DNA from: Candidatus Omnitrophota bacterium
GTDB taxonomy: Bacteria > Omnitrophota > Gorgyraeia > JAFGHF01
Direction of reading: 5' to 3'
Assembly: GCA_020341815.1 (NCBI GenBank)
Contig: CP070837.1
Coordinates: 1,172,575 to 1,236,574 of the forward strand
DNA: 64,000 nucleotides
The stretch's first letter is position 1; each line of letters starts with the position of its first letter. The notes under the pieces are model-generated. The model was not told the DNA's origin. It saw nothing but the letters and a program-made list of their open reading frames with translations, and ran no database searches. The position numbers were made by a program, and so were the translations under genes. Below, piece by piece: positions 3,001 to 63,000 of this stretch.

Positions 3001-6000
3001 GGAAGTAGAAAAGACCTTTGAACAGCTTCGAATTGAAGCATTTAAAGTTGTAAGCGGAGTAGATTACCCTAGATGGCTGCCTGTTATTGTACCAAGACAA
3101 ACATCAAAGGTGCCTTCTAAAGAACCTGAGCAGCAAACCCAAGGTTTGCCCAATTCCAACGCTGGTAAATCTCAAAAGGGCTCTTCTCCAGCTATTATAG
3201 CTGAAGACCAAGTCCTATACGGTCCATCTGTCTTAAAACTTGGCAATAAAGTAGCAGAAGAACCTATCCGTAAGGCTATACAGGATTGGACCAGCTGCTT
3301 GATTCGCGGCCCGGCAACAATCCAGAAATTAGCTGAACGGATTTCGTCTGTCTTTAATCAAGAACCCACAACTGCAGAACCCTCTGCAAATGTGGGTCTT
3401 TTTGTGTCTGATAATGGCATAAGCAACCGGGGCGGGAATTCTTCCGCCGCCTCGGAGTTTTCTGCCCCGGTTGATGCCATTAAACATTTCGGCGTAACAG
3501 AGATCTCCTCTACCAACTCCTCCTCCCCCGCCCTGCAGACCTTGAAGAAAAGCTTTATAATGAAGCTGACAACCGGACTTATCGCTCTATGCATCGGCAC
3601 CAGCTTAGGAACATTCCTTAGCAACTCTGCGGTAGCAGCAGCCAGCCGCACTAAGGAAACGACAGAGATGCATTCTGAGGTTTCAGGTTCCATCTTGGCT
3701 CTTCAGAATAGACTATGGAGAGTGGATACCTTAATAACATATCTGGAGAATAAGGAAGCTTATGATGAAGAAGAGATAAAAGGAATAAGAGACTATTACA
3801 TAAACGTATTATTAGAAGATGTATTAGAGAAGGATGAAGAAACCAAGGAATACTTTAAGAAAAAGGTAAGAGGCTTAACTTACGATATACAAGGGTGGAG
3901 ATTCTACAGCCCTACCTTACCACACGAGAAAAAGGTATCTCTGCAGAGAGAAGCCAGGGCATTCATAGAGTTTATAAATGAGTATTTTGAGGTCTCTCCG
4001 GAAAAGAGTGATGCCGCCAGGGTAGAAAAATTTATTGGAGAAAAAGACCCCGAACCCGGAAAGATAGAACAGATAGGGTTGCTGACGAAAATAAAAGCCT
4101 ACCGCGATAGTATTGCCTCAAGAATACCCGAACAGGAAGAAGACCAGCCGGAGAAGCCAGCGGCAGAACAGACAGAGCCGGTAAAACAAACAACAGAAGT
4201 TGAGCAGCAAGAGCAGCAGTCTGAGAAGACAGAAGAAAAGACCGAAACAGAGCCCACAGAAGGCAAGGCTGAAGAGCCAACATCCGAGCCCGTTAAAGAG
4301 AAGCCAGCCACTACCAAGAGCAGCAGGAAGGCGCCAACTTCCCAGAGACTATACGCCCGTCCCACATGGGAAGCCGGTGAAACTCCCGATACGGTTATTT
4401 ATAGACCTGGAAACTATAAAAAAGACGGCCCGGATAGTAACGCCAATGGCTACACGGACAACACCTTAGAGGATGCCGCGCGACAGGTAACGGAATCAGA
4501 AGGAGACGAGCCTACTGTGCATGGGGTTGGCAGAAGGGCGCTTAAGATAGCAGAAGAGAATAACATTTCCGATCCAAACCTTATTTATCCTAAACAAGGA
4601 ATCATTATTCAAACAACCCCTGAAGCAGTAGAGAAGCTTACAGGAAAAACAGCCGACTCTCAAGCCGATGATACAACAGAAGGTACCGAAAAAGATCAGG
4701 ATGAGACAGAAGAGCTGACAGAAGAAGAAATCAAAGAGACAGCTGCCAAATTTGGCAAACTGGTTCAAAATCTTAATCAGAATAATATAGACAACATAGA
4801 GATTGACCTTAATAGCCTCTCCCCCGAGCTTAAAAAAGCCTTATCCAAGGAAATTAAGGAATGGCAGAAAGCAATAGATGAAGCTAAGCAGAAGATCCAG
4901 CAGGAAAACACTACCAAAGAAATTAAAAGCTGGATAAAAACAGGCCTTAACCCGGACAACGCCAACTTAGGCGAGACCAAGAGAAACATTCTAAAAACAA
5001 TTAAGAACTCCAGGTTACCCAAAGATATTAAAGACAAACTCACAGAAGAAACAAACGCCCAGTATAAAGAAGCTTCCACGCTTCGGTTAGAAGGCAGGAT
5101 AAAACCTATCGTAATCACATTTTGTAAGCTTGCAGGGATAGCAGTAGCCTTGATTTTGGCAGTGATCGGCTTATTTAAGCTGGCTAGAGCGCGCTTTGGC
5201 AAGAAAAACTTTCCACCGTTAACTGCAAATGCACCCCAGGCCAAGAATGAACCGAAATTCCAACTTCCCGACCTGCAGGCAAAGAAGAAGCTTGCGCAGA
5301 AGGGTCTAATTTTAGGCTTTATAGCTATTCTGCTTGGTCTGCCGATAATGCTTGGAGTGCTACCTCCGATGGAAGTGTTTGGTGCAAATCTTGGCCTTCT
5401 CCTGACAGCGGCGGGCCTGACTGTGACTATGTTGACGATATGTATATCAAGACAGTCCAAACTCGGAACATTAAGCCTGGGCAAGAGCAAGAAGGAAAAA
5501 GCTCAGCCATCCGAAAGTAAAACATCCGAGAATAAGGATAAAGCCGATACAAAGAAGAAAGAAGCAAAGTCAAAAATTTCCAAAGTACAAACAAAGAAAA
5601 GCCGGAAGGCCAAAGTTCTGATTGCCGGCCTATCCGCAACAGGTATTGCGCTTACTATCTGGGCAATCGATGTAGCCAATAAGATAACTAATAAATTAGA
5701 TAATGTTGGTATATTGCTGGCAGCAGCTGGTCTGGCAATAATACTTAGCGGCCTGCTAATCCTTAAGCTTAAGAAGCTTAAGGCAAGACAGCCTAAAGTA
5801 ATAAGCTTAAACATAGAGCCAGGCAAAGGAAAGTCCAAAGACAAAATAGACGGCCAGTCATTGCAAGAGAAAAAAGCCTTATTGCTCAGCAAAGGGTTAA
5901 CTCAAGATTATGTGAATAGTTTAAAAGAGGATAAATTAGAAAAGATAATTAAGCAATATGAGCAATGGGAAGGCGCATTAAAGAATGTAATTCAACAATT

Positions 6001-9000
6001 GAAAGATTTAAATGCAGAGGATTATGATTTGACAGCTGTTATAGGACAATTAGAACAACTATTATCAGTTGTTGGGACATATTCTCAAGGGGATGTTGTA
6101 AAGACACTTATTAACATATTGAATTTTGTATTTTTCGATAAAGGAAAGAATGCCGCGGCCGATAAAGCATATATTATCCTTAAGGATTATATCGAAGACT
6201 TTGGTAAAGGGGAAGTTTTTGAGCCTCAAATAGGAATGCTTTTTGATAAGGCTGTATGGGGAAAAATGGAGTGTGTTTATGCCTCAGAATCGGCTAAACA
6301 AGGGAGAAAAGAGGGCAAGATTTCATTAATAGGAGAAGTTGTCAGCTTAGGCTTCTTGATTATGAGAGAGATTAGGAATGCAAAAGGAAAACTTATAAAA
6401 GTCAAGCAAGTTGCTATTGTTCCGGCAAAAGTCAAATGTGTATCTTCCGAAGAATTAAAGCAGCCCGAGAAAAAGGATAGCAAAGAAAAATCCGAATTTA
6501 AATTCACAGCTAATAATAAAGAAGACAATATCCCCTTCCCAGCTAAAAGAAAATCAGGGGAAGCCTCAGGAGATGCTCAAACAGACAAAACATCCGAGCC
6601 CGAGGAAGAGGAAAAATCCGATACATCAGAACCAGAGGAAAAGCTTCCAGATAAGGAAGGCAGCACAGATAAGCCAAACGAAGAAATAGAGAATAAGCCA
6701 TCCGAAGACAAAATAGAGAATGCTGAAGAAGAAAAGGGAACCTCAGAAGATCCTCAAACAGACAAAAAATCCGAGAATAAGGAAGAAAAGGGAACTGCCG
6801 GAACCGATACATCAAAATTAAAGATTTCCAAAGCAGATAGAACTGAAAAGGAATGGAATGAGCTTGCAAAGCGCAAGGGCCTTTCGATTAGTTTATTCGA
6901 TTCAAATGGAGATAGGCCCGAGGAAGAGAAAGAATCCGATACAGCAGAACCAGAGGAAGAGCTTTCAGGCAAGGGAGATAGTACAGATAAAGTCGATCAG
7001 CCAGAACAAAAAATAGAGAAAGAGCTTTCAGGCAAAGAAGGCAGTGAAGAAATAGCATCCGAAGGCGAAGAAGAGGATGCTAAAGAAGAAAAGAGAGCCT
7101 CGGAAGATCCTCAAGCAGACAAAAAAACCGAATTTAAATTCACAATTAATGAGATAAAACCCTTCTCCTTCCTACCTAAAGAAGAATCAGATAATAAGCC
7201 AGGTGAAGAGAAATCCGAAGAAGGGGACTCAAAAGAACAGCTCCAAGACAAAGAAGAAAAGCCATCAGCAGAAATAACTAAAGACTTGAAAGAACAAAAT
7301 GGCAGGAAAGATATTATAAAGCAAGGCAATAAAAAACGAGTAAAAAAGAAACAAAAGAAAACTTCTTCTAAAACTTGGAAGAAAATAATAATTATTCTAG
7401 CCCTTATCCCAGCAATAATTATAGGTTTTGTTCAATACATTGCCTTAGAAGCCCCAGCTTCAATCGTTAATCCTTTAAATAAAAGAATCGAAGTTGGGAT
7501 AGAAAAACCGAACTTACCTATGTCTAGGCGCTTTTTAACAGCGGTAGATGATAAGGAAGAAAATGACCCTCTCGATAATGATATAGAGGACCTTTTTGGC
7601 CAGGAAGAACAAAATCTGATAGTTCGGCCTTTATCCCGGGAATTAAATCCCAATAACCTTTTAGCCTTTACCGAATCGCAATTTAATAAATCTCATAGCC
7701 CGAAGGTTATACAGATTGGAAAGAAGATAAAGGTAGCAGGATTGCACGATATACCCGGGGGAGATTACTATGAGGCATTGGAATATGGATTTGAGATGGA
7801 CGGTAGATATGTATTATTTAATGGTGAAATTCACCGTATTGTAGGCGATGATATTTATAATGACGGTAGGCTTGTAGGTAGTATTAGCGAAGACTATCTT
7901 TCCGATGGAGAACTTAATAATACAGCAATTCCAGACATAGTCGGGCTAACTGACCTTGAGGGGTCGATATTAGAAAAATTAATAAAGGATGATAAGATTT
8001 CTATTGTTTTTGCAGTCGGCCGTGACGACAGCATATATTCTTCTATTGTTGATGACGATATGATTATTAGAGGTCCGAAACCGGACTTTGAAGATTATCA
8101 AGATATAGTTATAATCAATGGCAGGCCGATAGAAGTAAAAATAAGATTAGTTTTTTCCATAACGGCTTTCTTGGATAGTTTGAATAAATTTGAAGTTATA
8201 TATGTTTTCTCTCATTCCCGATGCGGCTTAGGATTCCATTTTTATAATGATAAACATCCTGTATATATGAATCGGGGCAGAAAAATAAATAGTCAACAAA
8301 AGGTAATCGGAATAAAAAGCAATAGTATATATCTGGAAAGCTATCTTAAGCATGGTATCATCTCAAAGGATAGAATCGTAGGAAAAACAGAGAACGGATA
8401 TACTCTAATTAGCGTAAACGATTCAGATTTAACTAAAGTTGTTCCTTACAAGGGCTATCAGCTTATAATAGCAGATTCCTGTAAAAGCAGGAAACACTTC
8501 TTAGATGATTTGAAACGTTTGAGAAAAGGCTTGCCCACCAGCTTCATTCTGAGCCAAGACGATAGTCAGGCCACGGGCAATTTTGATCAGGTTGTAGGAA
8601 TTATTTTTACAGGAGGAGACGTCGATACATTAGTAAACCAGATTAATTATAGAGAAGGCAAAGAGATATGGGATTATTATGAAATAGAAGAGACTATGGA
8701 TGTTAGTGATGGCAAGAGTGACCGGGGTAGGGCTTCTTCCGCCGCCTCGGAACCTGTCCCGGTTACTGCCATTTTCCCTAACTCCACTATCGAAGATACA
8801 TACGGCTCAGTGGTTGTGGTGAAAGGAGATTCAGTGCCGCTGAATGACCAGCCCAATAGAGATTTAGCCTCTTCACCTGCAACAGAGGCAGTTGCGGATA
8901 AGGTGCAACCGCAGGAAGAGATTCTGAGGGTTTCTGCTGAAGATAGAACAGAGTTTGATGCATTAAAGGCATATTACCGTGCTTTAGTTGAGGCAAGAGA

Positions 9001-12000
9001 ACAGGCTGAAACGGATGCAGGTGCCTGGGAGACGATAAGCGATATAGCATATAATATCTATTATAACCTGGTTGTCAAATGGAGAGATAATACGAATAAT
9101 AGAACCTTACATGTAGTCGGTAAAAGCTTAGATCATGGCTTCTTAAGAGAAATAGAATTGAGAAATAGAACATCAGGAGTAGTTAGCAAGTATGATGTTT
9201 ATACTCGTAGAGCTAAGGCTTTAAAGAATCCTGCTTCTGAAGAAGAGCTTAATTCACATCTGAAAGAGCTGCGGGATAACACAGACCAGCTTATAACGTC
9301 TATGGTTTTAGTAATTGACTATTTAAGCCAGGATTATCTGCCAGCAAAGAATCAAACCGCAGAGCCCACGGATAAAAATAAGCTATTAGGGATGTATGGT
9401 AAAAAGGACACAGGGCTTTTGTTAAACCTACCTAAGATAGAGGAATCTTTAATTGCAGCAAGGGCATCTTCACCCGGAGCTAATCAGGAAGATTCAATTA
9501 CAGAAGCTTTGGCAAATAACGATTTTGATCCAGAATATCTTAACACGCTGTCTTTGCAAGAAAAAGAAGATATTTTAGCCAGAATGCAGAAATTCACCGC
9601 TCCGTTAAATGATCTTATTACCGATTTAGAAAATGAAAAGAAACAGCCCGAAGGATTGCTTAAGCAGCTTAAAAAATTAATTAAGAATTTCAGTAGCCCT
9701 GCCTTTGTTGTCGTTGAGCCGTTATTCGATTCTGTTGGTTCCATACTTGTAATGAGGGTTTCCTCCTCTCCGGCAACAGTGTCTCATGTGGAAGAGAGCG
9801 GAGGACAAGATAGCAACATAAATCCTATTACAGATGAACTTGAGAAACACATAAGGAACATAGTGGAAAAGATTAGAAAGGGAGAGTTGCCAAATTTAGA
9901 GGTAAAAGTCTCTAGCGAAGAAAGCGGAGGGCGTTCCTCTTCTCCGGTTAAAGGCCAGGAAAGATTGACAACAATGTTGATTAACTGGACAAAGGCAATG
10001 ATTCTTAGCCTATTCATAAAGGCGAAGCTGCGCAAGCTATTGTTAGACAGAGAGGCTCAAGGCAAGTTAAACCTTAGAAGTTTAATAATTAAATGGGGGG
10101 CGGGGATCCGCTGGTACATAGACAGGCTGAAAAAATCCACTGCGGGACCAAGAGGCAAGACCGGAGTAATACTTGTAATAGACAAAGAAAGACCAGGCCG
10201 ATTAAAAGATTTTAACAAAGGGGATATATTTGCAGGACAACTGAGCCTGCCGGTAGTGGTATTTTGTGCGCAGGCCTATGCAGAATACCTTAAGAAGACA
10301 GGGCTGGGAGCGTTTGTAAGCGGGGATAACCGCTTTTATTCCAAAGAATATGCGGATATGTTCAGCCGCGTATTGATAGGAAACGGCATAACCGTATATA
10401 GAGATAAGTACTTGCAAACCACACCAACGCCGGTAATATCCTATATGGCATTTTATTTTGAAGATGTAGACACAGGAGTGAGTGTAACAGCCAGCCATAA
10501 CCCGCCGGACCAAAACGCAATAAAGTCAGCTAACCGGGATGGAGGGGTGGACACGGATGAAAAGTCAGAGCAAATAGCAAATATAGCGAATGATATGTAC
10601 GCCCATCCCGATGACTATGCATTATATATTGGGGATGCTCGAAAGGCCAAAGAAGAGGATGCCTTAGAGATTTATTATGATAACTATATTAAAAAAGTTT
10701 TTGGCACTAAGTTTGCCCAGACATTGTCTAAAGCCCATAGGCAAAAAGGAAGCGAGTTTATTATAGATGGCTTGGGAGGAGTGGCCGGACGAGCAGCCGC
10801 ATACTATTTGAATCGGCTGTTTAATGGTAATAGCTGGAAAGACATTGTCACAGTATTAAATGCGAAAGCAGACCCGACAATGTTAGGGATACACAGGCCA
10901 GACCCCTCAAACCCCAAGACATTGGAGTATTCAGGAGTATTAGAGACATTGGCAGGGAATCCGAGCATATTGATGTCCGTGACAGCAGATATGGATGCAG
11001 ACCGCACGGGGCCGGCAGTAATTATACCGGAAAAAGATGTAGTCAAGGCAATGACGTTCGGCTTATTCGTGACTGAGATGAATTTCGAAGGCAAAAAGGT
11101 GCACATAGTGCGCTTTACGCCGAACCAGATATTCACCCTGTTGGCATACGAGAGGATATTGCAGGCCTTTGAGAAGTTAATAGGGACCAGGGATGTAGAT
11201 GAGATACTGCAGGCTATAAAAGATAAGAGAGTAGACCCCTCCAAGATACATGTAGTGATGTCACTGCCCACAACGAGGCTGATGTATGCATTGTGCAGAT
11301 TGTTTGGGGTAACCCTGCATTATACGGCAGTAGGATTTAAGAATTGCGGCAAGGTAGCGAAAAAGATAGAAGATGAAGACCCCGAAGCAATAGTGATAAT
11401 ATTAGCCGAAGAGAGTGGAGGAGCGATAATCGGTCCGTTAGAGCGGGGTGAAAAAGGAGAAGGCATACATAAAGATAAAGATACATTGGTGCTTGCATTT
11501 GGATTATTTGAGACAGCAGCCCGCTTAGCCTTAGAAGATAGCAGTATGCTTGAGTTCTATATAGAAATGGCCAGCCGATTGGGAGGGCTGTTCTATTATG
11601 CGCGAGTAGATGCTTACTTGCCGACACAGGAAAAGGCCGAAGAGATTAAGGATCCCCGGATAATACAAGAGGCAGCAGAAGCAAAACAGAGAGCGATAGG
11701 CGCCTTTATGGAATTAGAGAATAGTAACGAAAAACTAATTAATACTTTTGGTAAGGAAGATCTCCAATATGAAGAGGAAGAATTTACGGTACCCAATACC
11801 TTAATATTTATAAAGGAGGAGAATGAGTGGGTGCTGTTAGAGCCTCGAGGCAGAAGGCTCAAGTTTAGCGATAAGACCTCCTTGGAGATATTCCACTTGA
11901 CCGAAGGTGCAGGCGGCGGCCCTGTAATTACACTTTATGATACCGAAGGAAGGCTGCTCTACTGGACATTAATCAGGCCTTCGGGGACAGAGTCATTAAT

Positions 12001-21000: not shown

Positions 21001-24000
21001 CTGTGCTTGCGAAATGAAAGCTATGGCAAGCGGAGATCGCTTGAAGATACTCTTGGAAATAATGGATGATTTTCATCGCGAGGCATTAACGGGTAAAGGT
21101 ACATATTGTAAATTTACTTCAGAAGGCGAAATTCACTGGACAGAAATAGATGAATTTACTAAGGTCGATCCTATTTTGATGAATAATTTAAAAGCTCTAG
21201 CGCTAGATCTACAAGGTAAGCCTTTCGCCAAGCGTGAACTTATATATACAATAGAGGGAATGATTAAATCAACAGCTGATGATTACGAATTTACAAAACC
21301 ATTGGCCGGAAAGAGCGTCGAAGAATTGATCAAGTTAATAGAAGGAAATAAAAGTAAGCATGAGTTTAGACATATAATAGACGCATGGATTAGTGATTCT
21401 GAATTGTATCTTACAGAAAGAATAGAAGAATTGAGAAACTCTTTTGGCAATAGGTCAGATGAAATTATAAAAAGAGTTATAGTAGAATTGTCCGGTTTTT
21501 TGAGCACACTGATGGATCCTTCATATACGCGTTATCAATTCTGTCAAACATTCTTAGGAGCAATGCATTGCAGGAACATAAGTCAGCGCAATTCTAATAA
21601 TGGCTCTCATTATAGCGTCAGCCCCAATGATGCCGCTCATTTTATCATCATCTTGGCAATGATGAATTGGGCTAAAGGAGAAAAAGATATTACCGGTAGA
21701 TATTTCAACGTGAATGATTGGAGAGAGACATTACGTCCTTTAAGTGATGAGCAAATAATACAATACGCTAAAGAGATTTATGAGTATATATTCCAAAGAG
21801 AAATGCTCATGCCCGAGCTTGTAACAACATATGAAGCTAAAGGTATGTGCTTCATCACCTCACTGGGTAGTGCAGAGGCGGCTGAAGCGCAGACACCGGA
21901 TGAAACAAAGCCACCTATTAAAGAATGGATGATAGAACTATATCGAGAAAAACTCCAAGAGTTAAGAGACAAATTTAATAAGAAAAAGATTTCAAAAGAT
22001 GAATTTATTTCCAGACAATTAGGTATAATTTTAAAACTAGCTAATGAAATAAGATTTGAACGAAAGGTTGCGCAGAAACAGCAGGATTGGTGCTTTAGAA
22101 CAAAGTTAGATTTGCGGATATTAGGAGAGCAAATAGGATTTAGAGTTTTTAAATATTTAATCATTTTAGATAAGAATTCTGATGGGACATTGTCAGTTTT
22201 CCCGATAGATAAAATATTCGATTTAGTAGAAGAATTTACGAAAACAGAAATTGCTATATACAGATCTTACGAAAAAGCGAAACTCGCTAACTACAGATCT
22301 TACGAAAAAGCGAAACTTGCTAACTACAGATCTTACGAAAGAGCGAAACTTGCTAACTACAGATCTTACGAAAAAGCAAAGTTGGAGATTTATAAGGAAA
22401 TAGAATACAGTCAAATTTATAAAGACAGAATAGCTACTATAGAAATAGTTTATAGAAAAAAAATAAAAGCTGTAGAAGTTACTTATAGAGAAGGAATAAA
22501 GGCTGCAGAGGCCACTTATAGAAAAGGAATAAAAGATGCAATTGCAGCTTATGACAATGCAAAAGAGACAGTGCTTCAAGAAATTACTAATAAAGCAAAG
22601 CAGTTTATTATTAAAGCTAAACAGTCAAATAACGAGGCAATGCTGATTCAAAGAGGACAACCCTGGGGAATTGGCCTAAGCGGATTGGTATTATTAACTA
22701 TATTATTTATGCCAATGATGGCCTTTGGAGGAGAAACTGAGGTATCCTCATCACCAATTAAGGCTAAATTCAACATGGCGGAGGTTGTCAAATGTGCAAC
22801 TCTGCTAAAAACAACCAAGGCTAATTTTATAAGAGTATTAGCAGTTGGGTTGGGGTTAAGTCAGATTGGATGGGTTTGGATTAAGTCTGAAGAAAAATCG
22901 ATAATACAATTCTTTTTGAAACCCCTTTTAGGGGGATTGGGAATAACGATAGTCTTTTTAGTAGGCTATTATCTGGCAACAATTTATTTTTCTAATCAAT
23001 GTGAGAACTATCTTGAAAAAGCAAATACTTTTATTATGTCAAAACAGCATCAGAAGGCAATTTTGGAATGTAACTACGTTATTAAATTAAAAAGATTTAT
23101 TCATTCAAATCTTGAGGGATTAGCATATAGCCTTAGAGGAAGAGCATATTTTGAATTGGGGCAGTATCAAGAGGCTTTGCTTGATTACGATACAGCTTTA
23201 AGACTTATTGTTGATGTTCCCGAGCTTGCTTGTTTTGTTCCATCTCTCTATGTTAGTAAAGGTAGCACACTTTTTCATTTAGGAAAATTGCAAGAAGCTT
23301 TAGATAGTTGCGAGCATGCAATTGAATTTGATCCCAATTTGGGCCCGGCATATGTAAATAGAGGAACAGTAAAGGCTTCTTTGGGAAATATTGAAGAAGC
23401 AAAGAGAGATTTTGAAAAGGCAGTAAGACTAGATTCTAAATTACAGCAGGAAGTAGAAAAAACAAAGAATTATTTAAGAGGTAAGGGTATAGATATTTCT
23501 TCTTCACCGGTTAAGATAACCGACTCAATGAGTACCTATGCGGTGAGTCAGATTTTGATGGGATATAGGCTTGTTGAAATAAATCCGCAGAACATTCAAT
23601 ACATTAGCAATATCACCTCTTCCGGTTTAATCCGCGGGTCGGATACTGCGGAAGTAGATAGCATTAAAACCTCCCAAATATCCAACCTTCCGTATCCTGC
23701 CCGCAAATATTCTGTAATTCCAGTAAATGAAGTAATAAAGGAAAAGAGTTGTTCTTCTCCGCTTACACAAGATAGTAAAAATAGCGGTAAATTTGCTCTT
23801 TGGCGCGAGTCTATTGAGAATTATATTGAGAGCTACTTAGATTTTCACCCCACCTTATCAAAATATTTAGGCAAAGTTATTCCTTTTATAGAAGTAGCGC
23901 TTTTGGCAACATTAGTCGGGTTAATGGGAGTAGCTTTATTAGGAGGAGCTTATTTATCCTGGATAGTTACAACAGCCCTGCTGGGAGGTAAAGCAGTAGC

Positions 24001-54000: not shown

Positions 54001-57000
54001 CCGCTGTAAAAAAGCATGGGGGGTCCTCAAGACAATAATTGAGTACGAAAAGGAGAAGCAGACCTTTAAGTTTGGCAGAGAAGATAAGACAAAACAGACA
54101 CATTCTCAAGACAAGCGCAGCATAAAACCGTTAAGCAGGGGCGGCTTTGAGGCGAGCCTCTCTATTATCGAGGCCTATCAGCATTATCGCAGAAGAAATC
54201 CCGATAGCGCCGGTTTAAACAACGGGCAGTTAATGGAATTAGCCATAGACCTCTTCAGGAGCAATGAGATAGAGACCTGCGGTATTTCGGGAGTAGGCGC
54301 TCATAGAATAATTTATCCTGCGGATATGGTGCATATGCAGGAGGCGCTTCTTCTGTTGGGTTATGACAGCGCTTTGCCCGAGATGATTAATAAGTGTTTA
54401 TCACGCGAATTGACGCTCCCCAATTTTATTACGGAAAGAAAAGTCGGTGCGGATATGGGAGTGGTTAAGGCAAGCAATGAGAATGAACGCATTCTGCCCG
54501 GCCAGTCAATACCTGTTACCATTCGTCATTTAAATAGCTTGGAGGAAAGCTTAAAGAAGGACCATTCTTTAGAGCAGGATACAAATAGTAACTTGAAGGC
54601 CTCAGGCTATAAGCCGAGGTTCTTTTTACCCTTGAACGCATTAACTATTATATTCCTGGTTGTTCTTGCCCTGATTGCCCTGCTGCTTTCTATATCTATG
54701 CCTTGCGTTGCAACCTGGTATATTTACAGATTTCAGTTGAAAAAATGCGCCAAAGGAATCTCCGGAGGCAAGCGTGTTTTTGACAACGAGCATTTAAAGC
54801 GCTCCCATAAATTTTATTTAGACACTATCCTTAAACTAAACAAAAAGCGCTTTGCCCGCCGTTCCGACCTCAGCACTCTTGGAGGAATGATATTCTGGCA
54901 GTTTGTCTTTATTGCCGCGGTGCTTAAGTGGATAGATCTGTCCGGAAATGAGCAATACGAGGCACATTTAGAGAACTTCGTAATTGCGCTGCATAATTAC
55001 CTGGGAGAAAAGTTTGCTGAGCAGAAAGACGAATGGATTTGCGTAAAGCTCGAAGGCCGTTTGCAGGAATATGCCGAAGAAATAATAAGGCATCTCGACC
55101 CGGATAATTTACAATTACATCAGGCCCAGGCCGTTATCGATAGACTGAATATAGCCGGCTCCTATATTGAAATTAAAGCAAGTTCGCCGCTATTAACCCT
55201 CCATCCAGATTTTGTAAATAAAATCAACGAATTTAGCAAAAAGAATATCTCTTCAGTCCATCCTTTGCTTAAACTCCCGAGTATATTTTTAGTTCCTTTT
55301 ATCTTCTATAGTCTAATTGTTATAACTTCAATGGTGGCACATCACGCCCCTCAGGACTTGGTGGCAAAGACGCTATGGCTGGCTTTTGCCCAGGCAATAA
55401 AAGGCGTGAGTATTTTCTGGCCGATTCTTTTCGGAATACTTTTATCGGCGGCCTTTTCAGCCTTTGTCTTTCATTGGCTGAAGGGCTTAAGAAGAAGCAG
55501 CCGCTTTGACGGGGTTCTTAATCTTGTTTTAGGTATCGGGTGTTTAAGCCTTCCTTTGATTGCTGCGGGCCTGGTTTTGAAGCTGACCGGTTTGGTTTTG
55601 CTTGCCTTGGCTTCCGGCGCAGTAACTCTGTCGGTTTTAGCGGAGATTCACTGGTGGGTTACCCGTAAAAGGCATAGCCGTATTGTCAGCGCCTGCCTGG
55701 GAGGGGTATTTGCTGCCCTTGCATTTATCGTAGGCTTCTCTGTTGAGTCGGCCACATTCCCGCTGCTTGCCCTTAAAGAGGTAGTAGTCTTTATTCTCTC
55801 TCTGGAGGCCTTGGCCCTATTATGGTCGCGGGCTCTCTCCTGCTGGCCTCTGCCTCTTGTGCCTGTGTTAACGACACTCTTTAAGTTTGTCGTTTATACG
55901 CCTTTTGCTATAATCGGGATGTTTCCTATCTTTGGGCATCTTACCGAAATAAGGATGCGCCTGAAGAGCTGGTGGCGGGACATGATTTCCTCTTTTTATA
56001 ATCCTTCGGACAATGAGCCGCATTCGGCAATAGGCATGTCCCTCCATTATTATTTCCGTCCGACTATTTTGATAGGAAGGGCCCGTAAGCACATTGTCTT
56101 CTTGCTTGCCACTGTTATAAGTTTCGGTTTGATGCATTTCTTTGGCGCGGAGTTCAGCCTGTTTTTCTGGTTTACAAACCGTTTAGGGGCCGGCGAACTG
56201 TATAAAGTTATTACGGGTTCTGCAATATTTGTTATGTTTGCAGAATACCTGCTTTTATTCTCTTTGTTTATGGGCCTGATGAATATGTTGGCCGTGATAG
56301 TTGTTTGCACAAAGTTTATAGTCTGGTCAGTGATTATGTTTCCTGCTTTGCGGCTGGCCTGGGATAAGCTGGGCCTGGGGCATATAATTATTGGCCAGTG
56401 GTTTTTTGTCTGGGAGGCAAACTGGGCGACTATTCGCATATCTACAAACGGCACGCAGGGCTTCTGGAAAGGAATAAAGCTGTGGGGCTGGGGCGAGCTT
56501 GACAGGGTCGATAATAGTAAGAAATATTTAGCAAGCTACTTTGGAAACCAGGCGCTGTCTTCACAGAAGCTTTTAGCAACATATATGTTTGAGGTTATGG
56601 TGAACGAGGGTAGCCCTGAGGAAGCACGTGAAGAGGCAATTCGGGTAGCGTTAGAAGATATGGGAGGATGGTTTAAGGTCTTCAGGCAGAACAGATTTGC
56701 GCCTTTTAAGAATATTTATGAGGAGCTAAAACGGGCCTGTCCCGACAGATTTACGCATACAAACTTTACCGAAAAAGAGGCAAAGGATGTTTTAACGGCT
56801 TTCTTCAAAGCTGAATTGGACAATGTAAATGACCATGAGAGCGAAACCGTAGATTTCGATTTCCCTGCAGGAATTGGCCATTCCTTATTTATTCTGGAAG
56901 ATTTGGAAAAGCTTAGAGAGCGTCCGGACTTTCCATTGATTGTCGCAGGATTTAAGCTGCACTGGCGTATGGGTGAGGCTTATAAAGCCGGGGGAAGCAT

Positions 57001-60000
57001 AGAGGTAACCTTTAACCTTGCAAACAAGATGCGCGAGGCCAAAAGGATAGGAATTGCCCACAGGATTATTCTGGATATAGGCCGTAACAACCTTAAAAAG
57101 GATAAAGGTCCCACTGACCCTATGGCTTTGCTTCAATGGCAGAAGGAATTAGAGAGGTTGAAGCAGGAAATAGTTGCAGAACGTCGCAAGAATCCTAACC
57201 CTTCAAAAAATAAAGCCTTGAAGAAGCTCACTGGTGATGCAATTGAATTTCTTTCTCTGGTGGCCGACGATAGAGAAAGAATCTATTTTGCCCGCAGGAT
57301 TGAGGAAGAGACGGGCGTTGAATCTTATCATGCGCATACCAAGACCGCGATAGGGCAGAAAGGCGGCGGCCAGCTTTATGGTTATTATCATATGTGTGGC
57401 TATGATGACTCTCATGTGTTCAGTTACGAGGTTAACGATCAGAATAGCACCACTCAGGATGTGCGCAAATGGGCCCGCGGCGTGCAGAGGATTATAGCGG
57501 CTTACGATTGCGATAATCCTATCAGTATCGATATAAATATGCGTAGCCACAATCGCACTGCGGAAGATTTCCATAGCTACTCCGATACCACAAATCTTAT
57601 AGAGCAGGGCGCTTGCCTGATGGCAGAGGCCTTAAACCATATATGGGGGCCTGGTTGGAACTCCAAGACCCTGGTCTTATTTGAGGAGCTTCTCACGGCC
57701 ATAAGTTATCGGGACTTTCCGGTTATGCCCTTTACTAATGCGACTCCCCTGCGCGGTGGGGTGTTCAAGCGTCTATGGGCCAGGCTCTTTGGCGGCCTGA
57801 GCGCTCCTTTTATGCTCCCTGATATCAGCGAAGATAATGCGACCCTGTTGAGTAATATACATACCGCCGCTGCCTTGGGATACAAACCCAAGGTAAAGAC
57901 GTCTGAAGAGGACGGAGAAAGAGCGCGCGGTGAGTTGAATGACGTCCGGGAAATCTTTACCCGTTTCCGCTGGTCTGAAGGCAGGGCGCAGATGGAGAAA
58001 TGCCCGCAGTTAATACACCAGATGGCCTTCAGTTTTCTTCCTTTATGCGAGAGACTTTCTTATGAGATTATCGGCTGGATTTATCAGGGAAATCATATAT
58101 CAATGCTTGCCAATATTATCCTGCCTTTTCTTATCTATTGGGACCTTAATTGCTTCCGTGGAGCCTTAGCTGCCTTATGGTTCTTGGGCCTCTTTGCCAA
58201 TCAGGTTCTTACCCTTGCTGCCCTTATCGTATGCGTGCGGAATAAGGGCTTAAGCCCGTTACAGTCTTTATTAATAGGGGCAGCCAGCTTTTTCTGCGTT
58301 GCTAAGATGTATAGCCTGTGTCTGGCAGGCCCTCCGGCTTTAGCTATACTTATCTACGGCGGCATTAATCTCGGCATTAATATCTGGCTGTCCAACCGTA
58401 TCCGCGATGCCTATTTGTTTGCCCCGGGAGTAACCCTGGAGTTCTGCGCTCAGCAGAGGAATAATTTCGTCGGCTCAGACTTAGTCTTTAGAATCTCCGG
58501 TGCAGGAAATTACGCTACCCGGCCGGATGTTGCCGCAGGCATATTATATAAGCCTGATGCTAAAGCATGGGTTGCTAAGGCTCCGGAGGTGTTAAGAGAC
58601 AAGAAGGGCAAATTTTACCGTATGGTTACTTGGCTTTGGAAGAAGGCTGCCGTAATATGTATTTCCTTATTATTCCATCTGGATTTAATTTCCTGGCCTA
58701 TTTTCAATAAATTTAGCTGGATAAAGGCATTCTATTCAAAAGAGAATATGGGATATTGGGACAAGGAAAAGGAAGACTGGATACAGGGAAAATTGGGAGG
58801 GGTTCAAGAGGTGCTCAAGTATCAGTTTATTAGCAAGTGGGATGATAAACCTAAAGACCCCCGCAAGTTCAGGCATAAGCTTAGCTTTATGGATACGCCA
58901 ATGAACAATGCTGTGGCAATAGGCCTGTTTGCTGCCTGCTGGTATATCCTGTTTATGATGCGGCTTAATCTTTCACACTTTGTTTTGATTGCAACTGCCA
59001 TAATCTTTTCTCAAGGCCAGGCCTTTGGTGCCTTCCTTTGTAAGCAGAAAATCGGCAAAGCCAGGGGCCTCAGCGTTATCGTTGACGGTATAATGAGCTT
59101 CTTCGGCTTTCTCCTGGGAATCGGCGCATTGCTGCTTTTTGTCAGCAGGTCTTATCCCGGATTTAAGGTTCCTCTTCCTTTTATAGGTTTGGTGAGTCCT
59201 AATATTGCGCTTCTGTTAACCCTTGTCTTTGTCGGATGTCCATTTATAGTGAACGGGACATACCTGCGCATTGTCCATACTTGGCTTTATTTCCGTAAGC
59301 GTAACCTGAAATCCCTAACTATAGATGACTTGCAAAGAGTAAAGCTGGCGGGTGTAGAGTTGTACACCGGCTATCTTGCCCGCTGGAGCCAGTGCCTGTT
59401 TAGGCACTTTATATGGTCGTTACTGCTCTGCTCGCCATTGGTGTATATCTCCCGCCAGCCGGAATATACATTCATTCAGGGCAAAATAAAGCATATTCTC
59501 ATTGTAGACTATTTCGTTTATAAATATATCTTTTTGGTGGGAGGACTTATCCTTTCTCTCATTTTGTTAGCCAAATTCAGCAATGGAATTGCGAAAAGGT
59601 TCTGGGCTTATAGAGCCTTAAGCGCACAGCGTATTTACCTTAATAAGGAGGCGCAACTTCAGAAAGAGATTAGGCGGGAATTAGAGTCTACCCGTTGCGG
59701 GTTGGATAACGCCTTGACAAAAGCGCAGTGGAATAGGGTAAAGAAACTAATTGCGGAGATAGAATATAAGGTTAGTCCTTATTGGGCTTGCATAGATAAG
59801 AGCGTGTCTTTCGTTCTTTACCTCCTGGCTGCGGCAGAGCTCGTTTTTGCCGGCTTAACCTTTACCTTTATGGCGCTAACTGCCCTTTTATCATTATGGA
59901 CGATTCTGCCCATTATTCCAGAGGTTGCAAGAGACGCTATTACAACTATAGGTAATAGTACTGATTGGATAAAAGCAAAGATGCCAAAGAAGTTTTCCTC

Positions 60001-63000
60001 CCCGATTATTTTACTTATGGCGGCATCAATCACATTGCTCTGGGCCTCATCTGCTTTTGCTGCAGAGGCGGTTGTTGATACCGCGATTCTTGCAGGCATT
60101 GCGGGAGCACTTCCAGAGATAATTTTAGCTATGATGATAATTGTAGCGGCATTTTACATTATTCTTTATGCTCTTCCTGGGTGCGAATTTTATGGCGCAG
60201 GCAAGCTGAGAAAATTATTCTCTAAACTTAATCCTTATTTAAGCCCTGTTATCAGGCGAATTAGAAGTTCAATCTTTCTTTCCACCTTGACTTTTCTAAT
60301 TTTCTTGCCCGGGAAAACTTGGGCTCAGGAAACAGCAGTAGATGTGTTATTCGATTGGATATGGCCTATTATAAAATGGGGAAGTATGGCATTCGTAGCA
60401 TTTATTATTTTGTTCTTAATAATGGTATTAATACTGTATGAAATAGATAAAAGATATATGGCTCGCCTGAAGATAGAGAACCCGCAGCTCTGGGCCTATA
60501 AAAAAGTTGTGAGATCATTCGAAGCTATTAGGCATTCAGAACAGAAGTTTTTCGAGGCATTAAAGAAAGTGAGGAAGGAGGAGCGAGAACATGCTTACAA
60601 ATGGGTAAGCTATAGCACTGAGCAGGGATGTGAGGACTCGGAGAGCACACCTTGGGACTATAATGCTGACGTCATTAAGTCAGAGCTACAAAATATCAGA
60701 GAAAAAAGGAAGGAAATAGAGGAACTTTCTCTGCAATATTTCCCGGACATATATTATGCATCACAGATAGAACGAATGGAAAGTGAGATACCTCAGCTGG
60801 GCAAATTTATAGAGGAGTTGAATAAAAAGAAGCCTGCACTGGAAGAGCTATTAGATAATCTAGAAAAAGGAAAATGCCCAAAATATAAGCGTTATGATTG
60901 GAAAAAGCAAAGAGAGGTATATGAAGATATATATATGCCCTTCCAGATACAAGGAGTAATAAAGTCCATAAAAGAATGTCTGGAAGGAATTGCCGATAGG
61001 GAAAAGATTTTGAATAAATTAAAGGTAAAAAAGGAAAACTTCAAAAGAAAGCTTGAGGAATATTGGCAGGATAATCCGGACAAGAGTTTTTACGATGAGC
61101 ATATAGAGGAGATATTGGAATTGAATAAACATCATCTGCATAGCAGCCATCCTGACGATTACAGGCCTGAATATCACGGGACAAGGTATGATTTACTCAG
61201 CAGAGTAAAGACTTTCGCCAAAAAGAGCTCCGATAATGGCCCCAATTTTTCCTCTCCCATTATTGAAAGAGTCTCTTCATCTATCTTGCACCATGGCTTA
61301 ATTGCAAGCTCATCTATAGGAAAGATATTTCTTGTATTAACTGCGGCAGTTTTTTACATTTTATACAAAATAGTTAAACACAGCCTCGATAAGCAATATT
61401 CCTTTTCGGAGGAAGAGCAAGAAATAGTAAAGAATATTGCTGCTCAGATGGAAAGTTTAAGATATAAGAGTTCCCGTACCTTATGTTTCGCTAAGGAGCT
61501 TGTCGATATTTTAGGGATAGATTTAATAAATGAAGTAAGAACGAAATATCAAGATGCGAAAAACAAAAATAATATAGAAGATGAATGTAAAATAATAAAA
61601 CTTTTAGCTAAAAATATCGTTGAGAAATTTGAATATCATAATGGCGTGTTTGAATTAGGTACGATTATTGAGATAGGGAAAGCTAGTTGTTTAGGGTTTA
61701 CTCAGGTATATTTTGTGTTAGATGATTATATTGGTTTTTCTATTGAACCAATTCATGTTGTTAAAAGCTTTCATAGAAAAGGCGGCAGAATTGCACATGC
61801 AGCTTCTTTGTTTACGTTATCTAATGGGCAAAAAGTAATGGTTGATGGAACGCCGCGCACTTTTCTTGTGGGAGATAGATTTGGATTAGAAGAGTATTTT
61901 AATAAAAAAGGTCTTTATTATAAGGTAAAACAGGGCAGGCAAGGAATTTATCATATAAAATTTAGAATACTTGATAAAGATAGCTTATCAGCAATGGTAT
62001 ATAATAATATGGGAGTGGCTTTTAATGATAGAAGAGAATACCAAAAGGCAATAAAATATTTTAAGATAACTATTGGGATAGACAACAGAAGCCGGAGCGC
62101 ATATTATAATTTGGGGTATACGTATCAGCAGTTAAAGAAATTTGAAAAGGCCATTGAATATTATAAAAAAGCTATAGAAATAGACCCAGAGTTTGATTCC
62201 GCTTATTATTGTATAGGAGTTTCTTTGGCTAATATTTGTGTTATATCGGGAAGATATAATCCAGAGATTGAGTATTATTTTAACAAGGCCATAGAGTTGA
62301 ACCCGTCATCACACAAAAACGAGGCAACGGAAATATTGGATGATGTCCGCAGAAGGTTATTCAACTCCTCAAGCCCCACAACCTCCAGCAGCCCTGTTAC
62401 TTCATTAGAGAGGTGTCTAAGGGAAGCCGAGGAACTTTATAGAAAGGCTCAAAGCAAAGAAGATATAAAGGAAATGGCAAAGAAATATCAAACAGCGATA
62501 GACACGATAGAAGATTATCAAAAGCCACATGATTCTTCCCTAAAGCAATATTTGAAAATAGCTAAGCTCGGAAAGCGAAGAGCAGGGGCATTATTAAATT
62601 GTTTTGATGAAAAAGTGGAAATTTTAGATGCGCAAGGTAACCCAACGGGTAGAAACATAACAGTATTTAAGGCACATAGGCAAGATTTCGGCGAAGTGCA
62701 TGGAGCTGTAGGCCTTGAGATAGGAAGCCTAACAGGAAAAAGGTCCCTTGGGCAGGTAAGAGCAGAGGATAAACTTGTATTTCCCGGAAGGGTTACTGTT
62801 GCCGCTTGCGGGCAGATCGATGCGGGAAAAACTCCGGAAGAAGCAATAGAGGAAGAAATAGAGGAAGAAATAGGGGTAGGCGACTTTCGTTTAAAGTTAA
62901 AAGCCGAACAATTGATAAAAATAGGACGATTTGACTTATTTTTAGGTAAATACGATTTTGTTTATTTAAACAAACAAGAGAAAATTAAGTTAATAAATAT

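Follow-up and report, generated by a model that had tools for sequence, protein, structure and literature searches.

A giant Omnitrophota gene with clustered transmembrane helices and a conserved two-bundle module around a candidate GT2-synthase-like domain

The 64-kb window, by which we mean the whole stretch of DNA analyzed, sits within a giant gene that extends past both window ends. Frame +2 contains no stop, compared with 718 to 1,915 stops in each of the other five frames, and every domain match that we found falls in this single open frame:

2..64000, plus strand: 21,333-codon open reading frame, 0 stops, cut at both window ends

A sequence-only reading of this DNA had treated it as encoding one polypeptide, and because the frame is free of stops, that premise holds at the level of the reading frame, with large soluble domains separating the membrane clusters. 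The encoded protein or polyprotein is longer than 21,333 aa and probably longer than 26,000 aa. Its nearest relatives are Omnitrophota MAG proteins, and the sole word-index match was an Omnitrophota MAG giant-gene fragment (52% identity over 444 aa) with T2SSF genes upstream. Searching genome and metagenome contigs for exact matches gave no hit. We think it likely that a single giant gene of the Omnitrophota "Archaeovorin-like" kind contains the entire window, and that its product is an inner-membrane protein or polyprotein with real transmembrane (TM) clusters, a GT2-like module, and an exported stretch.

Omnitrophota "Archaeovorin-type" giants have been described as carrying numerous TM helices per protein (bioRxiv 2023.11.21.568195; 2026.06.07.730766). 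The literature on them reports SecA_DEAD, methyltransferase (MTase), GH, NUDIX, and PGM/PMM domains and a TM count that scales with length, with a mean of 22 for proteins of ≥10 kaa and 48 for those of ≥30 kaa. The topology question has already been posed for such giants, on which TMHMM and DeepTMHMM disagree. The many-TM giant is already known in Omnitrophota; the detail added here is that two clusters flank a synthase-like domain.

The protein carries about 35 to 50 membrane-spanning helices, clustered within the single frame. With Kyte-Doolittle (KD) values averaging at least 1.6 over 19-residue windows, we found 46 non-overlapping segments, compared with 15.3 ± 3.9 in 100 protein shuffles. 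A TopPred-style GES scan gave 35 segments at ≥1.6, where 1.7 were expected and the highest count among 200 shuffles was 6, and 17 at ≥2.0, where 0.2 were expected. The claim of at least eight separated TM-helix clusters with dozens of helices was borne out, as 32 of the 35 strong GES segments lie within the eight intervals originally named, which together make up 6.9 kb (11% of the window). Three strong candidates were absent from that list (nt 3566 to 3628, 17171 to 17233, and 26687 to 26749). Our TM calls draw on hydrophobicity scales (the Hessa scale among them), shuffles, the all-helical secondary structure of AF2 models, and conservation of the big clusters in relatives.

The first 26.7 kb alternate between small hydrophobic clusters and recognizable domains:

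1454..1801, plus strand: class I SAM-dependent MTase domain, aa 485 to 600 (Pfam Methyltransf_11, E = 2.4e-14, 54 bits)
3566..3628, plus strand: strong hydrophobic segment, aa 1189 to 1209 (GES 1.79)
5108..5764, plus strand: TM cluster 1, five helices, aa 1703 to 1921 (KD 2.1 to 2.8, GES 1.6 to 2.4)
7382..7444, plus strand: single TM helix, aa 2461 to 2481 (GES 1.99, KD 2.73)
10238..12016, plus strand: phosphoglucomutase/phosphomannomutase domains I to IV, aa 3413 to 4005 (PGM_PMM_I, E = 3.9e-23)
17102..17335, plus strand: weakly hydrophobic, charge-poor stretch, aa 5701 to 5778 (GES 1.08 to 1.76)
19268..19411, plus strand: TM hairpin, aa 6423 to 6470 (GES 2.40 and 1.42), followed by a strongly basic tail
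20180..20419, plus strand: TM cluster, two to three helices, aa 6727 to 6806 (GES 1.21, 2.09, 1.84)
22670..22984, plus strand: TM cluster, two to three helices, aa 7557 to 7661 (GES 2.38, 1.00, 1.88)
23123..23440, plus strand: TPR repeats, aa 7708 to 7813 (TPR_1, E = 7.5e-21), between two TM clusters
23894..24235, plus strand: TM cluster, four closely packed Gly/Ala-rich helices, aa 7965 to 8078 (GES 2.04, 1.95, 1.99, 1.42)
24263..25771, plus strand: SecA-like motor, with a DEAD-like ATPase domain and a preprotein-binding-like region, aa 8088 to 8590 (Pfam SecA_DEAD)
26687..26749, plus strand: strong TM segment, aa 8896 to 8916 (GES 1.92), with RRNRE just before it

The MTase, phosphoglucomutase (aa 3413 to 4005), and SecA-like (aa 8088 to 8588) modules named in the sequence-only reading all passed Pfam cut-offs. 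The MTase domain also matched PDB methyltransferases (E = 2.5e-9), and the mutase matched a GlmM-like NCBIfam family (E = 1.8e-27); mutase domains III and IV were above their Pfam cut-offs, and domain II, at 21.7 bits, was under its 29.3-bit cut-off. The segment at aa 1189 to 1209 resembles a signal anchor or signal peptide, with KK..K, a hydrophobic core, and AAAS. TM cluster 1 consists of one helix and two hairpins joined by K/R-rich loops; its match to MFS_1 (17.6 bits, far below the 33.4-bit cut-off) was rejected as reflecting composition only. The helix at aa 2461 to 2481 directly follows a very basic stretch (KKRVKKKQKK...). The charge-poor stretch at aa 5701 to 5778 could hold one to three helices, a number that sets the parity of the mutase-bearing stretch. 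Single helices, hairpins, and four- to five-helix packs at 3.6, 5.1 to 5.8, 7.4, 19.3 to 20.4, 22.7 to 23.0, 23.9 to 24.2, and 26.7 kb would act as small anchors that tie enzyme-like cytoplasmic modules (MTase, mutase, TPR, and SecA-like ATPase) to the membrane.

The SecA-like domain lies directly downstream of the four-helix cluster. SecA_DEAD matched aa 8088 to 8382 (E = 1.3e-6, 28.3 bits against a 24.6-bit cut-off), and E. coli SecA residues 210 to 447 aligned with aa 8327 to 8588 (BLASTP E = 1.5e-4). Its ATPase activity is doubtful because its motifs are degenerate (MSTGKT; LEAD for DEVD; TANLTRNANF for TNMAGRGTDI). The segment at aa 8896 to 8916, which we modelled as running in to out, is the last helix ahead of a long TM-free stretch:

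26750..54637, plus strand: stretch of about 9,300 aa without a strong TM segment (no GES segment ≥1.6)
29291..29416, plus strand: PG_binding_1-like match (22.6 bits, just under the 23-bit cut-off)
38621..38854, plus strand: start of a GH2 TIM barrel (Glyco_hydro_2_C), aa 12874 to 12951 (27.7 bits; cut-off, 21)
42440..43873, plus strand: tandem repeats of about 100 aa, aa 14147 to 14624 (repeat search)

This stretch is probably extracytoplasmic. The in-to-out helix right after the SecA-like domain would open it, and the position of that domain fits a built-in motor that would help to export it. Two segments (nt 48089 to 49711 and 53132 to 53521) are homologous to the N-terminal part of Verrucomicrobiota relatives; five of these (P0010, P0014, P0017, P0021, and P0027) gave same-order BLAST matches to the window and have signal-peptide-like N termini. 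Of the glycoside hydrolase barrel named in the sequence-only reading, the start was recovered above the Pfam cut-off. We could not reproduce the LysM, YD, and FN3 assignments; the PG_binding_1 match was the only wall-binding one, and the tandem repeats matched no Pfam family.

Which modules face the cytoplasm had been raised as a question, and we addressed it with a home-made positive-inside optimization, a heuristic whose margins are small for most domains and whose parity can be settled only by counting two weak segments, at aa 4329 and aa 17090. With the MTase domain as the cytoplasmic marker, the model placed the MTase (margin, 53), the GT-like linker described below (14), a TGase-like match (13), and the first TPR unit (12) inside and the PG_binding, GH, and repeat regions (7) outside. 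On this basis the MTase, SecA-like, GT-like, and NUDIX-like parts would be cytoplasmic and the TM-free stretch of about 9,300 aa, with its GH part, external. The mutase is ambiguous by charge (margin, 3).

It is possible, though rather unlikely, that the gene instead encodes a polyprotein, one translated chain cut into many proteins, some with their own signal-anchor-like N termini, so that no single chain crosses the membrane dozens of times. Cleavage of such giants by C39 or S8 domains has been proposed in the literature, which describes the cut points as unknown, and the Omnitrophota MAG fragment has a weak Peptidase_C39 match in its N-terminal part; its source labels it a C39 domain protein. 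The motif SSP[A/V/I] could mark cut sites or module junctions. SSP occurs 35 times in the window protein, compared with 2.8 expected, and is encoded by 24 different 9-mers. It brackets the mutase (aa 3313 and 4057), a TPR unit (aa 4117 and 4196), the TGase-like match (aa 6216 and 6332), and the first TPR unit (aa 7583 and 7834), and it often lies 0 to 20 aa ahead of a TM helix; none occurs within the TM-free stretch. However, the window contains no peptidase domain, and none of the relatives examined showed an enrichment of SSP. The cleavage site of C39 enzymes follows Gly-Gly, not SSP. The motif may just as well be a target of phosphorylation or glycosylation, or a habit of this lineage in building linkers.

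The largest hydrophobic clusters lie at 54.6 to 60.4 kb, on either side of a domain of about 590 aa:

54638..56311, plus strand: multipass cluster A, 10 to 11 helices, aa 18213 to 18770 (GES up to 2.54)
57254..58087, plus strand: conserved soluble linker core, a candidate divergent GT-A/GT2-synthase-like domain, aa 19085 to 19362 (alignments, Foldseek, hhalign)
57359..57361, plus strand: K19120, invariant or nearly so
57437..57439, plus strand: D19146, invariant or nearly so
57830..57835, plus strand: E19277-D19278, invariant or nearly so
57968..57973, plus strand: R19323-W19324, invariant or nearly so
58088..60439, plus strand: multipass cluster B, 12 to 14 helices, aa 19363 to 20146 (GES up to 2.78)

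The two clusters and the domain between them form one conserved module, which also makes up the C-terminal part of Verrucomicrobiota proteins of about 4,100 to 4,400 aa. Homologous clusters were found in 28 relatives (exhaustive search) and at 39 GTDB loci, and those with names are Omnitrophota and Verrucomicrobiales hypothetical proteins. Relatives are collinear with aa ~16030 to 19780, both bundles included. Cluster A, in which a helical insert of about 110 aa follows helix 2, aligned in 17 of the 28 relatives in an iterated HMM search. Cluster B aligned in all 28, and its conservation is highest in the first four helices, which carry NQVLT and RxRD..LF.P motifs. Cluster B is the C terminus of the Verrucomicrobiota relatives: at Verrucomicrobiota GTDB loci the open reading frame ends about 780 aa past the start of the linker core, and at Omnitrophota loci it continues for 1,300 to more than 3,700 aa. 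The two bundles and the domain would together be one ancient module.

Within the module, conservation is strongest in the soluble linker, with its ED and RW, rather than in the helices. In alignments of the relatives, its K, D, ED, and RW, plus a G, are invariant or nearly so, and their order is that of processive GT2 synthases; hhalign placed them on KAGN, DxD, TED, and QxxRW of BcsA, although the DxD position has D-R/Q-N and QxxRW lacks its Q. The global score was 16.6, against 3.8 ± 2.0 (maximum, 7.9) in 30 block shuffles; the hhalign probability was at most 4%. In a low-confidence AF2 model (pTM 0.47, pLDDT 53), TM helices come after an alpha/beta part. The best 30 Foldseek matches of this model (E = 3e-3 to 0.5, none at E ≤ 1e-3; TM-scores, ~0.23) were without exception chitin, hyaluronan, cellulose, or dolichyl-phosphate-mannose synthases, followed by soluble GT-A enzymes, whereas a helical-bundle model run as a control gave random matches only (E ≥ 3). 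No Pfam GT family matched any of 23 module members at E ≤ 10, and PDB profile searches were empty. The GT2-like assignment is significant by no standard search, and we hold with moderate confidence that the linker core is a candidate GT2-synthase-like catalytic domain, a lead rather than proven membership. Most likely, the module would work like a membrane-embedded polysaccharide synthase, in which the cytoplasmic catalytic domain would add sugars and the surrounding helices would form the product path across the membrane.

The two bundles had been described as permease-like rather than simple anchors. Conserved polytopic bundles they are, but neither bundle matched a transporter or permease family in Pfam, NCBIfam, or PDB by sequence or profile searches, nor did eight relatives match a transporter family there. 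We consider it improbable that they form a transporter or permease for a small solute or for the protein's own segments, with a linker that is regulatory or unrelated. Each has 10 to 14 helices poor in charged residues, a trait of secondary transporters; statistical support for the GT assignment is weak; and the AF2 model of cluster A (all-helical, pLDDT 48.7) gave no useful fold. However, the two bundles are not paralogous and so lack the internal duplication typical of many transporters, conservation peaks in the soluble linker, and the fold matches of the linker are synthases. Since the conserved domain that lies between them has motifs and fold matches like those of GT2 synthases, a synthase plus channel fits the bundles better than a permease does.

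That most hydrophobic segments are buried globular cores of a largely soluble or secreted protein is very unlikely: at loose thresholds, shuffles alone produce 14 to 15 weak segments, and the weak ones at aa 4329, 4535, 14932, and 17090 have unfavourable apparent insertion energies and are probably such cores, but at GES ≥1.8 there are 29 segments against 0.66 expected, neighbouring segments are spaced as in hairpins and separated by basic loops, bundles A and B stay hydrophobic in relatives, AT skew is negative only across 54 to 60 kb, a signature of T-rich hydrophobic codons, and in the literature DeepTMHMM finds TM helices across this class.

Downstream of cluster B, the window closes with two further features:

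61304..61366, plus strand: single moderate TM candidate, aa 20435 to 20455 (GES 1.43, KD 1.94)
61991..62881, plus strand: near-consensus TPR repeats, aa 20664 to 20743, and a weak NUDIX-like match, aa 20927 to 20960 (Pfam)

The NUDIX-like match (18.2 bits) is below the 21.1-bit cut-off. The TPR repeats matched TPR_1 (E = 9.8e-20) and a designed consensus TPR protein in PDB (E = 2.8e-77).

Six-frame translation of the window showed that frame +2 (nt 2-64000) contains no stop codon in 21,333 codons, against 718 to 1,915 stops in the other frames. The sequence-only reading had presumed a single polypeptide, and at the gene level the stop-free frame therefore bears this premise out. The ORF is open at both window ends, and because it runs off both of them, the ORF listing contains no plus-strand ORF. 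GC skew stays positive along the whole window; AT skew is negative only at 54-60 kb, where codons for hydrophobic residues dominate. Self-comparison revealed almost no internal repetition; the protein is a mosaic and not a repeat array. Most of it lacks a detectable homologue, even among 5.8 billion proteins.

The class to which this gene belongs has been described as the Archaeovorin-type giants, exemplified by a 39,678-aa protein of Velamenicoccus archaeovorus (West-Roberts et al., bioRxiv 10.1101/2023.11.21.568195; Nielsen & Lui, bioRxiv 10.64898/2026.06.07.730766). Like them, it is a single ORF of tens of kilobases (21,333 codons, against a class criterion of >10,000 aa), encodes numerous transmembrane (TM) helices, about one per 400 to 600 aa, and combines methyltransferase, PGM/PMM, glycoside hydrolase, TPR and NUDIX-like domains with a divergent SecA_DEAD domain beside TM helices. 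Its closest relatives are also proteins of Omnitrophota metagenome-assembled genomes (MAGs), one of them with a weak C39 peptidase match and type II secretion neighbours. Unlike them, it is known here from an internal 21,333-aa piece only. A further difference lies in glycosyltransferase (GT) content: the preprints give GT1 and GT5 (starch-synthase-like) and do not mention a membrane-embedded GT2-like module, for which the window holds a candidate. This two-bundle module, shared with Verrucomicrobiota, is a possibly new component; an SSP motif is a second feature, as yet unexplained.

When aa 1-5000 were used as the query, the sole match among the 5.8 billion proteins was a 5,601-aa fragment from a Candidatus Omnitrophota MAG, whose residues 4757-5187 align with window residues 2-445. 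The best Omnitrophota MAG relatives of the window protein reach 52% identity over 444 aa (this fragment) and 38% over 701 aa. The fragment is the start of a giant gene, carries a weak Peptidase_C39 match and lies immediately downstream of two genes for the type II secretion platform (T2SSF). Archaeovorin-type giants are characterised by an N-terminal C39 or S8 peptidase region and by neighbours of type II secretion type.

Locus of the 5,601-aa relative and its neighbours
L001, 7828-9593 and 10001-26802 (GCA_043801485.1, JAZDLY010000031.1): the two T2SSF genes and the 5,601-aa relative

If the two genes are collinear, the window would start about 4,750 aa into its own gene. Beyond these 444 aa, no resemblance between the two proteins can be recognised.

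Eight TM-helix clusters had been listed from the sequence alone, and a Kyte-Doolittle scan reproduced all of them. Nonoverlapping Kyte-Doolittle segments of at least 1.6 numbered 46, compared to 15.3 +/- 3.9 in composition-preserving shuffles. By a GES/TopPred-style measure there were 35 segments of at least 1.6, where 1.7 were expected (maximum of 6 in 200 shuffles), and 29 of at least 1.8, where shuffles gave 0.66. The eight intervals occupy 11% of the window and hold 32 of the 35 strong segments; the other three lie at nt 3566, 17171 and 26687. Weak segments at aa 4329, 4535, 14932 and 17090 look like globular cores. A density of 35 to 49 helices in 21 kaa is ordinary for Omnitrophota giants and comparable to published values, DeepTMHMM having given mean counts of 22 helices for lengths of >=10 kaa and 48 for >=30 kaa across 916 long Omnitrophota proteins in the preprints. 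The sequence-only observation is confirmed and its interpretation largely holds, but the many-helix property is already published for these genes.

Domain detection depended on query length. Pfam searches with 5,000-aa chunks missed SecA_DEAD and underscored the GH2 barrel, and pieces of at most 1,100 aa recovered both.

Domains of the window protein (aa of the frame +2 translation)
aa 485-600, plus strand: SAM methyltransferase, above the Pfam cut-off
aa 3413-4005, plus strand: four-domain phosphogluco/mannomutase, PGM/PMM I, III and IV above their cut-offs
aa 4119-4195, 7708-7813 and 20664-20743, plus strand: TPR blocks
plus strand: transglutaminase core, weak (18.6 bits; cut-off 23)
aa 9764-9805, plus strand: PG_binding_1, just below the cut-off
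aa 12874-12951, plus strand: start of a GH2 TIM barrel (27.7 bits; cut-off 21)
plus strand: NUDIX, weak (18.2 bits; cut-off 21.1)

The domain set given for Archaeovorin-type giants comprises methyltransferase, glycosyl hydrolase, glycosyl transferase, peptidase and NUDIX, and also PGM/PMM. No peptidase domain was found within the window, and its sole GT candidate is the GT2-like domain. An NCBIfam scan added nothing, and phmmer against the PDB with all five protein chunks returned the methyltransferase, the mutase and TPRs only. The TPR repeats at aa 20664-20743 (nt 61991-62230) are unusually close to the idealised consensus, being matched by designed consensus-TPR proteins in the PDB at E = 2.8e-77. 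The sole substantial internal repeat of the protein is a unit of ~100 aa in three to four tandem copies (aa 14147-14624, nt 42440-43873; 26-40% mutual identity), which matches no Pfam family; homology to ~4,300-aa Verrucomicrobiota proteins sets in a short way downstream of it.

A SecA-like motor had also been proposed, and the domain is real. In an 821-aa piece, SecA_DEAD (PF07517) scored 28.3 bits against a cut-off of 24.6 at aa 8088-8382, a match unseen in the 5,000-aa chunks, and aa 8327-8588 can be aligned with residues 210-447 of E. coli SecA. The SecA hallmark stretch DEVDSILIDEARTPLIISG has its counterpart in LEADFYFLDDLFTPLVILG, after which comes a region aligning to the preprotein-binding domain. 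In comparison with the SecA translocase ATPase the motifs are degenerate: the P-loop is a shorter MSTGKT, Walker B (LEAD) is without its first Asp, and the degenerate arginine-finger region reads TRNAN. No scaffold or wing domains were detected in the window protein, and SecA residues beyond ~620 found no match at E<1. The domain (nt 24263-25771) may therefore be a pseudo-ATPase, judging from these motifs. It also differs from SecA in being covalently flanked by TM helices within a giant protein, as reported for Omnitrophota giants, whose divergent SecA_DEAD/preprotein-binding domains lack scaffold and wing domains according to the preprints, just as here. The order along the chain is a four-helix pack (aa 7965-8078), the SecA-like domain (aa 8088-8590), a basic stretch and a helix at aa 8896-8916, after which 9,300 aa run without a strong TM segment. 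The preprints suggest that the SecA-like domain helps to export the giant protein itself; the order of elements here would fit this suggestion and pin down the segment concerned.

Which modules face the cytoplasm was addressed with the positive-inside rule. Hand inspection showed typical hairpins, in which the turns are short and neutral or acidic and the outer flanks are rich in K/R. Topology was modelled by dynamic programming of the TopPred rule, with strong segments obligatory, weak ones optional, and K+R counted in loops or 15-residue flanks. The best model has 49 helices.

Predicted sides of the modules
Methyltransferase: inside, margin 53
Coiled region, aa 2181-2442: inside, margin 53
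Transglutaminase-like: inside, margin 13
TPR1: inside, margin 12
GT-like linker: inside, margin 14
TPR2 / NUDIX-like: inside, margin 4
PG_binding_1, GH2 barrel and ~100-aa repeats: outside, margin 7
Mutase: side undecided, margin 3

The SecA-like stretch (aa 8079-8895) is inside in the best model. Thus, of the modules whose sidedness the sequence-only reading had queried, the methyltransferase and SecA-like domains were assigned to the inside and the GH barrel to the outside, but the mutase stayed ambiguous. Enzymes that use SAM, ATP or nucleotide sugars need to be inside, and wall-binding and glycoside-hydrolase parts outside. The modelled sides agree with this biochemistry of the domain families and with the Verrucomicrobiota relatives, whose N-terminal part begins with a signal-peptide-like sequence. 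The model is a heuristic in which two doubtful weak segments fix the parity, and the literature warns that TM predictors disagree on Omnitrophota giants. Amino acid composition and net charge of the long segments were tried as side indicators and did not discriminate inside from outside.

The two largest clusters form a conserved module: bundle A (aa 18213-18770, nt 54638-56311), a linker domain of ~590 aa and bundle B (aa 19363-20146, nt 58088-60439). Word-index homology searches with bundle B, or with bundle A plus the linker, gave no matches. Only an exhaustive HMMER search (aa 19300-20499) yielded relatives, 28 proteins in all, those named being hypothetical proteins of Omnitrophota MAGs and of one Verrucomicrobiales MAG. 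By BLAST they are collinear with the window, aligning at aa ~16030-16570 and ~17711-17840 and then over the module.

Module blocks aligned by BLAST
aa 18233-18815: bundle A
aa 18878-19360: linker
aa 19360-19780 and beyond: bundle B

Iterated HMM searches recovered bundle B in 28 of 28 relatives and bundle A in 17. In the ~4,300-aa relatives, a signal-peptide-like N terminus leads into ~2,700 aa that lack TM helices; both bundles come next, and the protein ends after bundle B.

We then looked across GTDB genomes with a close sub-alignment and found 39 loci, ~27 in Verrucomicrobiota (62-81% identity) and ~8 in Omnitrophota (37-50%). The Verrucomicrobiota ORFs (L011-L037) end 775 to 800 aa past the start of the linker core, whereas the Omnitrophota ORFs (L039-L041, L046, L047 and L049) continue for 1,300 to >3,700 aa after the module, as in the window. 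The module therefore appears to predate its incorporation into giant genes, and the difference in where the ORFs end suggests that a free-standing exported protein of ~4,300 aa was fused into them. GTDB bins labelled Limnocylindrales, Clostridia and Pseudobdellovibrionaceae (L030, L038 and L043) contain the module as well, with 46-64% identity, which could reflect mis-binning or horizontal transfer.

The bundles had been likened to permeases. No transporter family (MFS, ABC, RND, APC and others) was found for nt 54.6-60.4 kb in Pfam or NCBIfam, phmmer and profile searches of the PDB were empty, and Pfam assigned no family to eight relatives. Self-comparison showed neither similarity between bundles A and B nor internal duplication. 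With moderate confidence we would replace "permease-like" with "synthase-plus-channel-like."

This wording comes from the linker. Conservation within the module is highest in the soluble core at aa ~19085-19362 and in the four helices that open bundle B. In a 23-sequence alignment, K19120, D19146, E19277-D19278, R19323-W19324 and a G three residues later are invariant or nearly so. Their order and spacing resemble those of KAGN, DxD, TED and QxxRW in processive GT2 synthases, whose signature is D, DxD, (T/S)ED and Q(R/Q)xRW in this order. In the alignment SED and RW do not vary, and the K of KAGN and first D of DxD are nearly invariant and correctly aligned. An AlphaFold2 model from this alignment had low-to-moderate confidence (pLDDT 53.4, pTM 0.47) and contained an alpha/beta part, a helix starting from the ED pair, the RW within a helix, and then TM helices. 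Foldseek with this model against 350,542 PDB chains gave no match at E<=1e-3. Its 30 best matches were all membrane-embedded GT2 enzymes (E = 3e-3 to 0.5, probability up to 0.96, TM-scores of ~0.2): yeast, Candida and Phytophthora chitin synthases, Chlorella-virus and Xenopus hyaluronan synthases, soybean CesA and dolichyl-phosphate mannose synthase. Soluble GT-A enzymes ranked after them. Bundle A served as a negative control; its model (pLDDT 48.7) matched only unrelated helical proteins, at E>=3.

Profile-profile alignments to BcsA were made with E. coli BcsA and with a nine-sequence BcsA/curdlan-synthase alignment drawn from plasmid and chromosome records. None reached significance by itself (E = 0.26, 0.077 and 0.075; global P = 0.0033). 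They pair the K with that of HAKAGN, the D with the first D of DxD, SED with TED, and RW..G..Q with RW..G..Q. The global score was 16.6, against 3.8 +/- 2.0 (maximum of 7.9) for 30 block-shuffles of the target columns and 4.4 for the reversed target. What is nonrandom in the alignment is the collinear order of the matching blocks. None of the GT families in Pfam, including Glycos_transf_2, Glyco_trans_2_3, Cellulose_synt and Chitin_synth, matched any of the 23 members at E<=10, and PDB profile searches with three alignments of module relatives (A1, A2 and A3) gave either nothing or designed helical proteins. We also considered "ADDRER" in the window, which aligns to "LDDGGR" in BcsA, as a site of the first UDP-binding Asp; other family members do not conserve this position, and the match was set aside as a coincidence.

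The module resembles processive GT2 synthases (BcsA, chitin and hyaluronan synthases, plant CesA) in a predicted cytoplasmic alpha/beta domain between TM helices, K...D...ED...RW in the same order at similar spacing, and TM helices from ~40 aa past RW. It differs from them in that D-R/Q-N stands in place of DxD and QxxRW lacks its Q. Known processive GT2 synthases have a handful of helices on each side, whereas the module has ~10-11 before and 12-14 after the catalytic-like domain and lies inside proteins of 4,100 to >21,000 aa, with thousands of upstream, probably external, residues. The layout also resembles that of fungal beta-1,3-glucan synthase FKS1 and plant callose synthase (GT48), with a multi-helix bundle, a cytoplasmic catalytic domain of ~500-600 aa and a second, larger bundle. 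The likeness is confined to this layout: FKS1 is in the PDB library yet absent from the 50 best Foldseek matches, and Pfam Glucan_synthase was unmatched. We consider the chance that the linker is GT2-synthase-like to be even or slightly better, on the basis of motif order and the predicted fold, and do not file it as a GT2 member. The flanking helices would then form a glycan channel. More tentatively, and with the balance somewhat against it, the module may represent an undescribed family of very large membrane-embedded polysaccharide synthases with a divergent GT2-like domain between polytopic bundles, free-standing as exported ~4,100-4,400-aa proteins in Verrucomicrobiota and swallowed into Omnitrophota giants.

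Omnitrophota giant genes are among the largest known in any organism, and both preprints leave open how their products thread the membrane, which parts face the prey and whether they are cleaved. To this the window contributes a map that follows the chain and can be tested: small anchors bearing enzyme modules predicted to be cytoplasmic, then a SecA-like domain directly ahead of the helix leading into a predicted 9,300-aa exported stretch, and a conserved module of two bundles whose catalytic-type residues are like those of synthases. Should the synthase reading be true, the module would be a new, very divergent branch of processive glycosyltransferases common to Verrucomicrobiota and Omnitrophota; the giants would be partly biosynthetic and not purely degradative, building and extruding a polymer besides degrading prey walls, and some of the dozens of crossings would be a synthase channel. 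If it fails, the window is one more example of the described class.

Finally, the tripeptide SSP, usually SSP[A/V/I], occurs 35 times (nt 2627-63517) where 2.8 copies are expected. It is encoded by 24 different 9-mers, which rules out origin from a DNA-level repeat and therefore indicates selection at the peptide level. The copies are confined to aa 876-7918 and aa 18394-21170; the 10,475 residues between (aa 7919-18393, 49% of the protein) contain none, with a chance probability of ~6e-11. They bracket the mutase, a TPR unit, the transglutaminase-like match and TPR1, and several lie just before TM helices. No SSP enrichment was found in the relatives or in other Omnitrophota ORFs. The motif may mark processing sites, phosphosites, glycosylation sites or linkers. 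A bolder proposal would be that lineage-specific SSP[A/V/I] marks sites of polyprotein processing; according to the literature, the cleavage points of Omnitrophota giants are unknown. At aa 1174-1217 (nt 3521-3650), the sequence right after an SSP has the look of a complete signal peptide (SSP-ALQTLKKSFIMK, a hydrophobic core, then SNSAVAAAS), and similar arrangements of SSP and a signal-peptide-like sequence occur at aa 6416-6443 and aa 19999-20020.
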